The notes below the pieces were generated by a model. That model worked only from the letters and a program-made list of their open reading frames with translations. It made no database searches and was not told where the DNA came from. Position numbers and translations under genes: made by a program. A stretch of DNA of 44,378 nucleotides from a virus (Duplodnaviria > Caudoviricetes). The DNA is taken from the IMG/VR virus record IMGVR_UViG_3300031841_001583, positions 1-44,378 of that record. One strand, given 5' to 3'. This document shows, one piece after another, positions 2,761-38,356 of this stretch; position 1 is the first letter of the stretch, and every line of letters begins with the position of its first letter.

Positions 2761-5664
2761 TTAATCGTAAGTGACTTCAGGTTGGCCTGTGAAGACGATG
2801 TCCGCACAGAAGTCAGCGTTCTTGACGTATGGGATAACATCCCACGGTTCAGCACCCGGACCCCAGTAGGTTCCGACTGCGCCGTCGATGTCGATAACGT
2901 CGCCTTCCTCAAGACCCGTGACGGTTCTCGATTGAGCAACGTACGTCGATGTCGTCAGGGTGTGGTACCCGACAAGCACTCCGTTCTTCGTGACACGAAT
3001 GGATGCGTTGACGTAGGGTGAGGCTGTCGAGGTCGTGTTCTTCTTCATCTCGAACTTGATCTTACAGCTTCCACCTTTGTCGGTCGTGAAGGTCTTCAAA
3101 GTCTGGTACGACCACGACCCACTCCATGTACCAGTCGCCCAACGCTCGGTGTCAGCACTGACAATGACTGCGTCAGATGCGGAGTAGACACCCACGTTGA
3201 TGATGCCGGATACGGTCAGGTCTGTCCCGTCGAATGACAGGTAGTTGCCGTTGGCCTTGTTGCCCACGTAGAACTTGTAGGCACTCGTGTCGTAGCCCAA
3301 GAAGAAACCTGCGCCAGTCTCGAAGCCTGCTCCTGTCGATAGCATCTTGCCTGTGGTACCAACAGTCAGCGTACCGTCAACTGTTAGTGAACCAGTCTGT
3401 GTATCAACGGCAGAGAGGTTCGTCACGTTGATCTTCGCCGCAGTGACAGCACCTGCCAGAATCTCATTCGCCGTGATGGCGTTAGCAGAGATGTGCGTGG
3501 TGCTGATCGCGTTGGTGCCGATCTGTGTCGAACCGATGGTGCCGTTAATCATGGACTGGCCGTTGATCGTACCAGTGACAATCATGTCGCCGTCGATCTG
3601 AAGCAGTTCAGCCACACCGTCCCACCATATCTTCGGTGTGAAGGTGACAGGATCAACAACTGAGAAGTTGTCCGCAACGATCACGAAGGAACCAGTGGAA
3701 CCATCGTTGAGCTGCGTGAACCCAGTGACCCGTCCACCCACGTCCAGCGTTACGCCGTAGTGTGCTTCGAGATCAGAGATACCTGTCTCTGCGTTGGTGA
3801 TAGCCGATGCGTTGGCAGTGATGTTGATGTTGGAACTGTCGACTCGTCCATCCACCGCAACAACCGAAGCATTCACGTCAGTGATTGCCGATGCGTTGGC
3901 CGTGATGAGTCCACCCTGCGATGTGACCGTACTGTCAAGCGTCGAGATTGACGATGCGTTGGCAGCCATAGCCGCGTTATCTGTGGGGGACCATACGGTA
4001 CCCGTCCAGATGTGCAGGTTGTTGTTGTCACTCGTGTCGATCCAGAGGTCGCCTGCGTTGTCAGCAGTCGGGGCGGTGCCCTGATGGAAGACGCGATTCC
4101 GGTTAGACAGCGTAGCCTGTACGCCTGTGATAGCCGATGCGTTGGACGTTACGTTGCCGTCAGTCGTCACGATGCTGTTGGCGTTCGTAACGATGTCAGC
4201 CTGAGCTGTCGTCACGTCACCCTGTAGCGTGGTGATGTCCGTCTGGACCGTAGAGATGTCCGATGCGTTGGCCGTGATGTTGCCTGCGTTGGTCGTCACA
4301 TTCGTAGACAGGGACGAGAGGGCGGCAGCATTGCCAGCAATGGCAGCATCCTGAGCCTCGACCCAGCTCACACCGTTGTATCGGTAGAGCTTGTTGTCGT
4401 CCGAGTCGATCCACAGATCGCCAGCATTCAGGTCAAGCGTAGGAGCGAGAGCCTGCATGTACGTGCGCGAGCGCAGGTCCACGTCAGTCTGCAACGTCGT
4501 GATGGACGATGCGTTAGTACTGATGTCGCCAGCATTGGTAGTTACGTCCGTCTGTAGCACGGAGACAGCCGCCGCGTTGGCGACGATGTCACCTTCAGCA
4601 CTCGTGACGCGAACGTCAAGGGCCGTAACGTCAGACGCTATGGCCGAGTCAGCGTTGGTGCGTGCTGTCTGCTCTGTGATGATGTCAGCCGCGTTGGTGT
4701 CAGCGTCAGCCTGTGCCGCAGCCGTAGCCGCAGACAAAGTGGTGAAGCGTGTACCCAGTGACTCAGCTGGTCCGACATAGGCAGTCGTCAGGTCGATCAC
4801 GAAGGCAGTGCCGCCAGCATTCTCCGCGCCGATGAGGGCGAGGGTCGAGGCAGTTGCCGAGTCAGCGTTAGAGCGGACAAGAGATTCAGCCACGATTGCA
4901 GCTGCGTTATCCGCAGTGTCAACTTGCAGTACCGAGATGGCAGCCGCGTTGTTGCCGATGCGGGGATCGTTGATGTCGACCCACACGCCAGCCGTGTAGA
5001 TGTACGCAGCGTTGTTGTCGTCGCTGTCGTACCAACGTGCGCCTTCAGGTATCGGGTTAGGGATACCACCGACACCGGGCACAGGTTCTGTTGCCTGAAT
5101 GTAGACAGCAGCAGCTACACCCTGAGCCAGCGTGTTGAGCTGGACCTGTAGGGATTCACCGAGGGTGACGATAGCTTCTGCGTTCAGGTCGATGTCCGCG
5201 ATGCGAGCTTGCAGTGTCGCGGCAGCTTCCTTGTTAATCATCTCATTCACGAGCGCCGCGATGATTGCGTCGGACTCGGTTTCGACAATGCCCTGACCCG
5301 TAGCTACGTTAAAGAGCGTCTCATTGATAAGCTCATTGAAGCTGTCAGCGTACTCTTGGGACAGGTAGTAAGTGTGGAGGTAAGCCGTGTCGAGATCATT
5401 CGCACGTAGCGTTGATCCATCGACGAAGTCTACCAGTATGTTCGACGGTGAGGTCCACCGTTTGATTTCGATAGCACTGCCATCACCGGGGGCGTTGACG
5501 AACTTGATGGTTGAACTGTTCGTCCACGTGTAGTGCATAGTGGTGAGTTGCAGCACCTCGTCAAGGTACACATTGATGTGACCCTGTGCGATGTAGGGCA
5601 TGGGGACGTTGTACGACTTGGTAACACCATCACCTTCGTACAGCACCTTGGATGAGAATGACAT
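2761..5664 (-). CDS. Tail fibre/spike with T7 gp17-like N-terminal anchor (967 aa)
   Basis: N-terminus (YEGDGVTKSYNVPMPYI...LVDFVDGSTLRANDLD) resembles the gp17 anchor. Heptad repeats and repeated GDLWID..N.L..W.G..W modules. Start moved to ATG 5664 (GGAG SD). Confidence 0.88.
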   Translation of the reverse strand: MSFSSKVLYEGDGVTKSYNVPMPYIAQGHINVYLDEVLQLTTMHYTWTNSSTIKFVNAPGDGSAIEIKRWTSPSNILVDFVDGSTLRANDLDTAYLHTYYLSQEYADSFNELINETLFNVATGQGIVETESDAIIAALVNEMINKEAAATLQARIADIDLNAEAIVTLGESLQVQLNTLAQGVAAAVYIQATEPVPGVGGIPNPIPEGARWYDSDDNNAAYIYTAGVWVDINDPRIGNNAAAISVLQVDTADNAAAIVAESLVRSNADSATASTLALIGAENAGGTAFVIDLTTAYVGPAESLGTRFTTLSAATAAAQADADTNAADIITEQTARTNADSAIASDVTALDVRVTSAEGDIVANAAAVSVLQTDVTTNAGDISTNASSITTLQTDVDLRSRTYMQALAPTLDLNAGDLWIDSDDNKLYRYNGVSWVEAQDAAIAGNAAALSSLSTNVTTNAGNITANASDISTVQTDITTLQGDVTTAQADIVTNANSIVTTDGNVTSNASAITGVQATLSNRNRVFHQGTAPTADNAGDLWIDTSDNNNLHIWTGTVWSPTDNAAMAANASSISTLDSTVTSQGGLITANASAITDVNASVVAVDGRVDSSNINITANASAITNAETGISDLEAHYGVTLDVGGRVTGFTQLNDGSTGSFVIVADNFSVVDPVTFTPKIWWDGVAELLQIDGDMIVTGTINGQSMINGTIGSTQIGTNAISTTHISANAITANEILAGAVTAAKINVTNLSAVDTQTGSLTVDGTLTVGTTGKMLSTGAGFETGAGFFLGYDTSAYKFYVGNKANGNYLSFDGTDLTVSGIINVGVYSASDAVIVSADTERWATGTWSGSWSYQTLKTFTTDKGGSCKIKFEMKKNTTSTASPYVNASIRVTKNGVLVGYHTLTTSTYVAQSRTVTGLEEGDVIDIDGAVGTYWGPGAEPWDVIPYVKNADFCADIVFTGQPEVTYD

Positions 5665-34611: not shown

Positions 34612-34614
34612 CCT

Positions 34615-34632
34615 TCTGGGGTTGGCCCCCCC
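34615..34632 (-). promoter_or_regulatory. Putative phage RNAP promoter within the early region
   Basis: GGGGGGGCCAACCCCAGA immediately upstream of hammerhead E. Confidence 0.7.
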
Positions 34633-34635
34633 TCC

Positions 34636-35067
34636 CTATCCGGTGATGTCCTCACTCACGAACGGTCCCCCGCAGCAGTCGCACGGGCACTCACGTGCTA
34701 CCTTGCTCGCGATGAAGTCGACCGTGTCGTCGAGCGTGTAGCCCAGCAGCATGCCCAGCTCGTATTGCAGGCGCGAGCGGCTGATCCTGCCCTCTTTGCA
34801 GTCGAACACGAGGTCCGTGCCCAGTCGCGCCGGGTTAGTCTCACCCGGTACGATGTTGCGCCGTCCGATGAAGGCATGCTCGTGAAGCAGACCGTCCTCG
34901 CACCGTAGCATGGCCAGCTCAACCCACAGGTTGCTACGCTCGGCCATCATCACGATTGTCTCGTATGCGAGCGTCGACTTGCCCTCGGACACGATCATCA
35001 GCGGTTTCTCACCGTCATACACGTCCACGTATGCGCACATGCAGTCGTCGTAGTATGTCCTATCCAT
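34636..35067 (-). CDS. Early hypothetical protein (143 aa), Cys-rich C-terminus
   Basis: MDRTYYDDCMC...LGMLLGY...CPCDCC; GGGAG SD. Confidence 0.65.
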   Translation of the reverse strand: MDRTYYDDCMCAYVDVYDGEKPLMIVSEGKSTLAYETIVMMAERSNLWVELAMLRCEDGLLHEHAFIGRRNIVPGETNPARLGTDLVFDCKEGRISRSRLQYELGMLLGYTLDDTVDFIASKVARECPCDCCGGPFVSEDITG

Positions 35068-36687: not shown

Positions 36688-36876
36688 TTACGCGGTTTTC
36701 TTGGCCTTCGCAGCGGGTGCGAGCGCCTTGTTGCACCAGTCCTCGACTGCACGCATGTGATTCGCGACTGCCTTCGGCACGTCCAATTCGACCGACTGCA
36801 ATGCAATCGCGGCCTTGCGATTCTTGGCACGTGCGGACAGGATTGCGCTGCGAGCTTCATTCGTGAGATTTGCCAT
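36688..36876 (-). CDS. First early protein (62 aa, basic, Ala-rich)
   Basis: GGAG SD; flanked by hammerheads A and B. Confidence 0.65.
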   Translation of the reverse strand: MANLTNEARSAILSARAKNRKAAIALQSVELDVPKAVANHMRAVEDWCNKALAPAAKAKKTA

Positions 36877-36894
36877 GATAATTCTCCAATTTTA

Positions 36895-36953
36895 CGTAGT
36901 TTCGGCCTGCTGGGCCTCATCAGGCGCACGATACGATCCAGTGCGCTACTACG
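36895..36953 (-). ncRNA. Hammerhead ribozyme A (type III)
   Basis: CGTAG-TA^-GCGCAC-TGGATCGTATC-GTGCGC-CTGATGA-GGCC-CAGCA-GGCC-GAAA-CTACG. All three stems are perfect; GUA cleavage after 36947. Confidence 0.93.
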
Positions 36954-37320
36954 CTCACATGCAACACTTGCGCGGTACACTTCCGACCAAAATCCATTCA
37001 AGGCAGGCGCGGAATTCTCGCACATGTGCCATGTGAGCGGGTTACACGTGGTTTCCAATGTTTCGGCCCAGTGTCCAGATCGTTTCACCCCGTAGGCATT
37101 CTCACCTCCCGTACGCGGGTTTCCCAGACACGTGAACTCTCACGTGATAGCGGCTTAATTCGCGGGTGCCGTGTTTCCAGTCGAATGCGCTGGAGCATAT
37201 TCCCGTATCCCATCGCGACCGTTCTGAATGCGGGCATTCCGCAAAGCTCAATTCCCGGTCTGGGACGGTCGACGGTAGCGGCTTGGAACCCTTCGGCCAA
37301 GAATCTGCTGGCCGTCGACG
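36947..37320 (-). ncRNA. Candidate large structured leader / ncRNA
   Basis: No convincing SD-led ORF; many inverted repeats and T-loop-like motifs; bounded by a sigma70-like promoter and hammerhead A. Confidence 0.5.
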
Positions 37321-37326
37321 ATTCAA

Positions 37327-37355
37327 ACAATGGACCTGCCGCCGAATTATTGCAA
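37327..37355 (-). promoter_or_regulatory. Putative host sigma70 early promoter
   Basis: TTGCAA-17 nt-CATTGT with an A-rich upstream tract. Confidence 0.5.
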
Positions 37356-37428: not shown

Positions 37429-37890
37429 GGCACCCTGCCCGAATTCTGGCCGAATTCCCGCTATTTTCCGGCACCCTGCCCGCTATCAGGCACCCTTTCC
37501 GGCACCCTTGCGCACCCTTTCCGGCACTATCAGGCACCCTGCCCGCTATCCTGCCCGGTATCCTGCCCGGTACCGTGCCGGGTGCCGTGCCGTCGACTGG
37601 TAGCACCCTGCCCGCTATCGTGCCGGGTGCCGTGCCGGGTGCCGTGCCGTCGACTGGTAGTCTACTGGGAGTGGCCCCCCGTCGACTGCCGGACTTTTTC
37701 CCGCGTATATATAGTGTCGACAAAAAAACATATCGGGTGCCGGGTGCGAGTGCCGTACAGGATAGCGTGCCGTGACTGCCCGTCGACGTGCCGTGCCTGC
37801 CGGGTGCCTGATAGTGAACGTACCGGGTGCGAGCGGGTGCCGCGTGCCGGGTGCGCATTAGGTTCGCGGGCAGGGTAACGGGCAGGTCTG
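37429..37890. repeat. Array of short GC-rich repeats near the presumed left genome end
   Basis: Recurrent GCACCCTGCCCG, GTGCCGGGTGCC and GTCGAC units; position analogous to T7 terminal short repeats. Confidence 0.8.
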
Positions 37891-38008
37891 GCCCCCCGCG
37901 ATACGCGCATAGGAAGGAGGCACGGGGGCCACTGCGGCGTGTCCACGTAATGAACCCCGTTCAGATAACTATAGCAAAACTTTGAGGCTCTCCTCTGGTG
38001 TCACACCA

Positions 38009-38312: not shown

Positions 38313-38321
38313 ATCCTGCCC

Positions 38322-38339
38322 TCTGGGGTTGGCCCCCCC
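38322..38339 (-). promoter_or_regulatory. Putative phage RNAP promoter (phiOR-like position)
   Basis: GGGGGGGCCAACCCCAGA after the terminase gene. Confidence 0.7.
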
Positions 38340-38343
38340 TCCC

Positions 38344-38356
38344 TATCAATGACTTA
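38344..38356 (+). promoter_or_regulatory. IHF consensus site
   Basis: TATCAATGACTTA matches WATCAANNNNTTR; 4 bp from the motif. Confidence 0.55.

Follow-up and report, generated by a model that had tools for sequence, protein, structure and literature searches.

In an uncultured T7-like phage, a leader RNA built as a chain of variable modules heads the early operon

The early region of an uncultured T7-like phage opens with a leader of 374 bases (37320-36947, minus strand) whose base-pairing has been selected and kept across relatives, and which is a chain of modules varying between these relatives rather than one fixed 370-nt fold. What could such an RNA do for the phage? By analogy we favour, with a rough probability of 0.4, a role like that of the HK022 put RNA, in which the leader would keep the host polymerase processive across the 8.3-kb early operon. 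We infer the start site of the leader, its cleavage and the fold of its module M2. Hammerheads in polycistronic and early phage transcripts are already known; the modular leader RNA is uncatalogued.

The window, the whole stretch of DNA analysed here, is a virus record of 44.4 kb with its genes on the minus strand. It contains a single-subunit RNA polymerase gene at 31418-28998, and its nearest cultured phages reach 41% identity in the polymerase and 52% in the terminase. Searches with the terminase, the ribozyme and the first gene yielded ten relatives with a leader at the same place (L001, L002, L004, L006, L008, L009, L014, L073, L148 and L151); the leaders of L002 and L006 are cut by contig ends, and L003, L005, L007, L010 and L067, which end before the leader, were omitted. 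The features discussed below are listed here with the basis for each.

37327..37355, minus: predicted sigma70-type host promoter (sequence; same layout in relatives)
37268..37319, minus: D1, irregular 5' hairpin with an 8-bp closing stem (MFE, probability 0.5-0.6)
37207..37266, minus: D2, 60-nt stem-loop (all 7 double compensations)
37176..37194, minus: D3, 5-bp hairpin (complement, pair probability)
37151..37171, minus: D4, hairpin of 4 bp whose 13-base loop opens with ACCC (MFE)
37129..37146, minus: D5, 7-bp hairpin with a GAGU loop (probability 0.8-0.9)
37071..37131, minus: module M2 (present in the window, L001, L006 and L151; 4/11 leaders)
37066..37137, minus: swapped cassette of 72 bases (joint variant table X2, X3, X4; L001 alignment)
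36952..37039, minus: D7, long irregular 3' hairpin (probability 0.9-1.0; local z -3.1)
36894..36954, minus: hammerhead A, type III (Rfam RF00008)
36688..36876, minus: first early gene, a 62-aa basic two-helix protein (126 related protein clusters)

The promoter comprises a -35 box TTGCAA (37355-37350), a 17-base spacer and a -10 box CATTGT (37332-37327), with an A+T-rich tract upstream; transcription is predicted from this sequence to start at 37320. It matches the consensus at 7 of 12 positions and was missed by a strict promoter scan. Read by eye, a -10-type (C/T)AnnnT box occupies the same place in 11 of 11 leaders and a TTG-type -35 box in 8, and this recurrent layout supports, as a prediction, the host promoter that a preliminary description had put at the leader's 5' end. 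On the minus strand from 44378 to 21678 it is the sole match to the family promoter pattern, and a scan with that pattern found no second promoter within the leader. From this promoter to the end of the polymerase gene (28998), the early operon measures 8.3 kb.

Other elements accompany this region. Upstream of the promoter, G+C-rich short direct and inverted repeats at 37430-37900 probably mark the genome-end region. A 29-base repeat, 97% alike between its two copies at 34612-34640 and 38319-38347, and similar G-run motifs after the terminase in L002, L004, L006 and L073 (twice in L004 and L073) are candidate phage polymerase promoters. The early region of L148 has a second promoter-like site at ~3533-3562, with a -10 box as in the window.

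At the other end of the leader, hammerhead A scores 34.5 bits (E 1e-5), below the RF00008 gathering score of 48.5, and has stems I/II/III of 6/4/7 pairs, the CUGAnGA and GAAA core and an NUH triplet. The cut is predicted after A36947, in a GUA triplet that reads GUC in L001. That this ribozyme sets the 3' end by cleavage, as had been proposed, likewise holds as a prediction, the arrangement recurring in relatives: a hammerhead core lies at the leader end in six of the eight relatives with complete leaders (181-535 bases), with Rfam support in L001 and L008 and a minimal stem II in L004, L009 and L148. L073 and L151 have no hammerhead core, and their leaders end in long hairpins, which may resemble RNase III sites.

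Rfam finds a further hammerhead, of type II, at 36310-36243, and three more type II motifs were seen in the sequence, giving five hammerhead motifs in total that punctuate the early genes. The four type II motifs (minus strand, ~36684-36613, 36310-36243, ~35506-35450 and ~34605-34545) sit between early genes, each ending in the ribosome site of the next gene. Some relatives have, at positions between the same early genes that are held by hammerheads elsewhere in the family, long hairpins built on a common frame (L073 2270-2330, 2840-2890, 3265-3315 and 3855-3900; L151 2685-2750; L009 6745-6810); presumably these too are RNase III-like, which suggests that ribozyme and nuclease sites replace each other. 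Clustered hammerheads occur in polycistronic RNAs of phages and prophages, and HHphage heads the early transcript of halovirus HF1/HF2 (Perreault et al. 2011, PMC3088659). The phages in the accessible part of that paper share with ours hammerheads that separate or precede early genes, with the first ribozyme a short distance ahead of a start codon; that part describes the ribozymes and no conserved structured RNA upstream.

The first gene after the ribozyme encodes a protein with an invariant S-x-R-A-K-x-R-K motif, modelled as a helical hairpin (pLDDT 83), which might bind the leader. No Pfam is on record for its 126 related clusters and it has no PHROG; a fold search gave no match at E <= 0.001, cultured phage records gave none for the gene, and among 101 genomes around G001 its family was found in G001 only.

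The leader is non-coding. Two TTG-started ORFs overlap it (37085-37330 and 37102-37326); both begin before the predicted +1, and in L001 both are disrupted by frameshifts. Substitutions relative to L001, 29 in all, fall on codon positions 10/10/9, in agreement with the earlier remark that the leader holds no convincing gene. A leader peptide, in which a 37-codon ORF from AUG 37198 would be translated and regulated by the structure, is very improbable. Its AUG is preceded by GGGA and, with the first 15 codons, is identical in L001, but the even spread of substitutions leaves no synonymous bias, the ORF stops elsewhere in L001 (30 codons), and the invariance, which is at the DNA level, is equally well explained by structure or binding.

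The excess of structure that had been claimed for the leader is borne out by covariation and not by folding energy. The MFE of -138.9 corresponds to a z of -1.44, with 9/100 shuffles as good; a local z of -3.1 is confined to the 120 bases at the 3' end, and 30 control windows go to -3.5. Among the 11 leaders z is negative in ten, ranging from +1.1 to -2.9. Covariation was scored on the leader's MFE pairs, a set chosen ahead of any look at the variants. The sequences compared were L001 and, from runs X3 and X8, five contig pieces, with 40 variable sites in all; runs X6 and X13 contributed none. Seven distinct double compensations were found against a null mean of 0.41 (0/20000 randomisations), and four broken pairs against 18.3; the variants are mutually related, X8 has a depth of ~3, differences away from contig ends are those counted, and three of the seven compensations, those in L001, can be read as one strand slide. 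Eight one-sided changes keep their pairs through G-U on the minus strand, which points to an RNA of that strand. A two-sequence count gave 98% paired cells against 29-40% in slid controls, its shuffle control being weak with two rows (33/500). The joint-variant table, 40 of 97 rows, served as a cross-check only.

All seven double compensations are located in D2 (37266:37207, 37261:37212, 37243:37229, 37242:37230, 37241:37231 twice, and 37240:37232), a stem-loop interrupted by a bulge and a purine-rich internal loop and capped by the hairpin 37243-37229. This result bears on the six helices initially proposed, all of which are perfect Watson-Crick complements. Four of them appear in the predicted ensemble: 37319-12/37275-68 and 37194-90/37180-76 with pair probabilities of 0.5-0.6, 37039-30/36961-52 with 0.9-1.0, and 37146-40/37135-29 with 0.8-0.9, the last being lost in L001 and overlapping a better-supported helix with its outer three pairs. 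The hairpin at 37226-39 is refuted: its probability is 0.0, both L001 and one run contig disrupt it, and its place is taken by the covarying helix 37243-39/37233-29. Also disfavoured is the long-range helix 37265-58/37129-22, with a probability of 0.11-0.14 and two covarying local helices as rivals. Its 8 bp are reached in 3/150 shuffles in the window and the 10 bp of its L151 analogue in 0/150, the same test not being significant in L001 or L006; it is a possible second conformer.

How are the modules arranged? The closing stem of D1 starts one base after +1, and one base separates D1 from D2. In D1, one variant turns G-C into G-U and keeps the stem, and one, in a low-depth contig, introduces an A-C break. 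D3 is invariant in L001 and shows no covariation. D4 falls to a probability of 0.1 when the ribozyme is included; its loop could pair with the GGG of M2, and counterpart hairpins lie 40-44 bases before M2 in L001, L006 and L151. At the place of D5, L006 and L151 have a hairpin of unrelated sequence and L001 a weak one. The 10-bp base stem of D7 ends five bases before the predicted cut, and its variants comprise four one-sided G-U-compatible changes and one break at a helix end.

M2, whose fold was derived by eye and script from four sequences and is not the MFE fold, combines a helix (37131-24/37078-71), a 4x9 internal loop and a variable apical stem-loop with a GUGAGAA loop. The loop strands, GAAR and UGRAAYGAU, are fixed at 10 of 13 positions, whereas the helix has 8, 5, 5 and 8 pairs in the window, L001, L006 and L151, with differing pair types; the 4x9 loop is an uncatalogued RNA motif. 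Close relatives replace the 72-base cassette with a different segment of 87 bases that retains the M2 loop strands. Pairing of the M2 3' strand with the leader's 5' end was above chance in none of the four leaders tested. Other modules recur as well. A 34-base module, M4, is nearly identical in the distant leaders L014 (2866-2900) and L151 (1984-2018), with one compensatory change in its inner stem and outer stems that differ between the two. In L004, L006 and L009, and in similar form in L073 and L148, a hairpin whose stems vary beneath a GACWCCGG-type loop precedes an A-rich tract and CGGA, and this region possibly forms a pseudoknot.

Across the family the leaders share words rather than an alignment. 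Seven-base words present in at least three of nine lineages number 41 against 18 expected (0/200 shuffles); no such word or motif is universal among the leaders, and the 5' domains cannot be aligned across the family. Pattern searches for further members had small yields. The exact 23-base leader pattern had no match in viral contigs; the type II hammerhead pattern gave 53 loci and one new relative, L014, five others on inspection being coding chance matches; and a metagenome scan covering 11/64 parts gave 77 loci and one new leader, L073. Of the 14 loci matching the M2 pattern, L001 and L006 were already known, L153 and L159 are antisense to a gene, and the remainder are unsupported bar L164, an intergenic match in an unrelated phage (1500-1570, minus) with a poorly defined flanking helix. 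The M4 pattern was upheld only in L014, the module being absent from the other 14 of its 15 loci, and the M5 pattern only in L009 (120 loci from 14/64 parts). The sequence-only model R1, run on 55 sources, returned its own four members and one coding chance match.

L151 comes from a Proteobacteria MAG, where its surroundings resemble a prophage next to tRNA genes; the query used found no phage polymerase in that MAG. A tRNA gene follows the terminase in L149 (844-918), L006 (5239-5312), L147 (1823-1895) and L073 (992-1065), and in L002 a short tmRNA-like match (2209-2285) precedes the terminase. The leader of L148 includes, at ~2620-2632, a hairpin with a five-base A-rich loop that presumably recalls lambda boxB.

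Rfam 15 covariance models gave only a chance match to the window leader (E 8.5, other strand) and none at E <= 2 to the leaders of the ten relatives; likenesses to twister, TPP, cobalamin and group I/II RNAs were dropped, there being no Rfam match. When 50,697 phage records were searched by blastn, the leader had one match, of 29 bases and confined to the ribozyme part. A CsrA sponge of the CsrB/RsmY/RsmZ type was rejected: the window leader has 11 GGA against 8.5 expected (p 0.16) and one ANGGA against 2.0, and among the 11 leaders GGA is enriched (nominal p < 0.05) in two and ANGGA in one. An rRNA-type boxA antitermination leader was rejected too: even with three mismatches allowed, the motif is absent from the window leader and nine others, and the remaining one, L148, has a single three-mismatch match. 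The three T-loop-like strings and five GAAAC copies noted beforehand are present, and under criteria from the accessible parts of PMC3664808 and PMC4810234 M2 shares with double T-loops a fixed UG..A pentamer after a variable helix, found by sequence alone in the 3' loop strand of all four carriers; the partner AG..A pentamer, however, is missing from the 374-base window leader and has no common position in the three other carriers, so that the strings do not amount to a double T-loop. A literature search of openly available texts found no publication on the leader, and motif lists elsewhere could hold a module; the accessible part of PMC9163698 treats only late sRNAs of an N4-like phage.

How, then, could the leader act as put does? 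The put RNAs (putL and putR) are formed by two stems, ~70 nt in all, behind early promoters; they bind the beta' zinc-binding domain, suppress pausing and both Rho-dependent and intrinsic termination, and work over 10 kb without needing a tether, as described in the accessible text of PMC9378689. Similarly, the leader would be the first RNA made from the single predicted host promoter; D1 and D2 would fold on leaving the host polymerase and then load onto it, and the polymerase with its bound leader would stay processive through the early operon. Hammerhead A would free the leader, harmlessly if put-like action needs no tether, and the downstream modules M2 and D7, swapped between lineages, might add contacts or stability. 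This reading is supported by the place of the leader, which immediately follows the early region's sole predicted host promoter of the family type, by its retention at the same place in ten relatives and by the selected structure, strongest in D2. The two irregular stem-loops predicted at +1, separated by a single base, are reminiscent of the two stems of put. Like put as that source describes it, the leader would be a structured, protein-free RNA made from an early promoter of the host polymerase, would begin with a pair of neighbouring irregular stem-loops, and would tolerate being cut from the message. The likeness is one of predicted layout. The leader is about five times longer, modular, from a T7-like phage and ended by a ribozyme, D1 and D2 span 113 bases against ~70, and the stem-loop layout differs among relatives. 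From 37320 to 26000 the minus strand has no predicted intrinsic terminator, so only Rho or pausing could be the target. Unalignable 5' domains, the wide length range and the lack of a universal motif are odd for a ligand of a single conserved polymerase surface, and the 3' 260 bases, conserved in close relatives and unneeded by a put-like RNA, count against it.

Next in likelihood, though itself unlikely, comes a released trans-acting RNA, stable and end-protected, whose interchangeable modules would bind or decoy host proteins or RNAs, such as factors of defence, translation or decay, within minutes of infection. A stem of at least five pairs within two bases of +1 is found in 6/11 leaders against 1.4 expected, and such a 5' cap would, after cleavage, protect only the leader itself. 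Fixed loops between changing stems (M2 in 4/11 leaders, the 34-base module of L014 and L151, the GACWCCGG-type hairpins of L004, L006 and L009) resemble binding sites. Their scattered occurrence, like the exchange of the cassette, fits an arms race. Release is not specific to the leader, however, as all five hammerhead motifs punctuate early genes; a 3' hairpin adjoining the cut is not enriched (5/7 against 3.2 expected), nor is GGA in the window leader, which also lacks the AG..A pentamer of a double T-loop. Rather less probable is a folded spacer, shielding an untranslated stretch from Rho and nucleases until the ribozyme makes the 5' end of the first gene, with the fragment then decaying. 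An unremarkable folding energy (z -1.4), the variation of the leaders in length and sequence, and the long hairpins replacing the ribozyme in L073 and L151, as if processing served the downstream gene whatever the leader does, agree with it; it leaves unexplained both why a leader without an internal second promoter is retained and why distant relatives share fixed loops and the words counted above.

Improbable, finally, is the conformational switch suggested earlier, in which the leader would gate hammerhead A and hence translation of the first gene. D7 does overlap three pairs of hammerhead stem III, the M2 3' strand can form nine pairs with ribozyme loop I and does so in the MFE fold of leader plus ribozyme, and the M2 5' strand has the distal complement described above in the window and L151. 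Against this, L001 does not retain the stem III pairs that D7 overlaps, the distal complement lacks significance there and in L006, and L151 carries M2 without a ribozyme. With the leader present, the active ribozyme fold costs an additional 2.4 kcal/mol in the window, ~0 in L001, 0.8 in L014 and 1.3 in L008; values of 2.4-3.9 kcal/mol in L004, L009 and L148 come from a minimal stem II that is poorly modelled.

The early leader of T7, made from host promoters, is cut off by RNase III at R0.3 before the first gene. Ours would share with it removal ahead of the first gene, the hairpins of L073 and L151 lying at the matching place, and differs in its predicted ribozyme cut, in having one predicted promoter against three, and in its covariation. 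Compared with GOLLD, ROOL and OLE, large structured bacterial non-coding RNAs whose role is uncertain in the accessible part of PMC12286853, the leader is smaller, consists of local modules in a chain, has little sequence conservation within its family and matches no Rfam model.

Defined ends (promoter, ribozyme), compensatory pairs and a natural cassette swap make the system directly testable. It is conceivable, if doubtful, that the first product of this uncultured T7-like phage family is a ribozyme-released RNA whose swappable modules disarm or redirect host machinery in trans; just as doubtfully, it might then do as an RNA what anti-defence proteins do early in infection, the 4x9 loop serving as a new motif for recognition. 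Should the leader prove to be a released decoy, it would represent a new type of weapon that phages use early on. In T7-like phages early transcription must reach the phage polymerase gene, and if the leader is put-like, as we favour, protein-free RNA control of the host polymerase would extend beyond the lambdoid phages to the T7-like ones.
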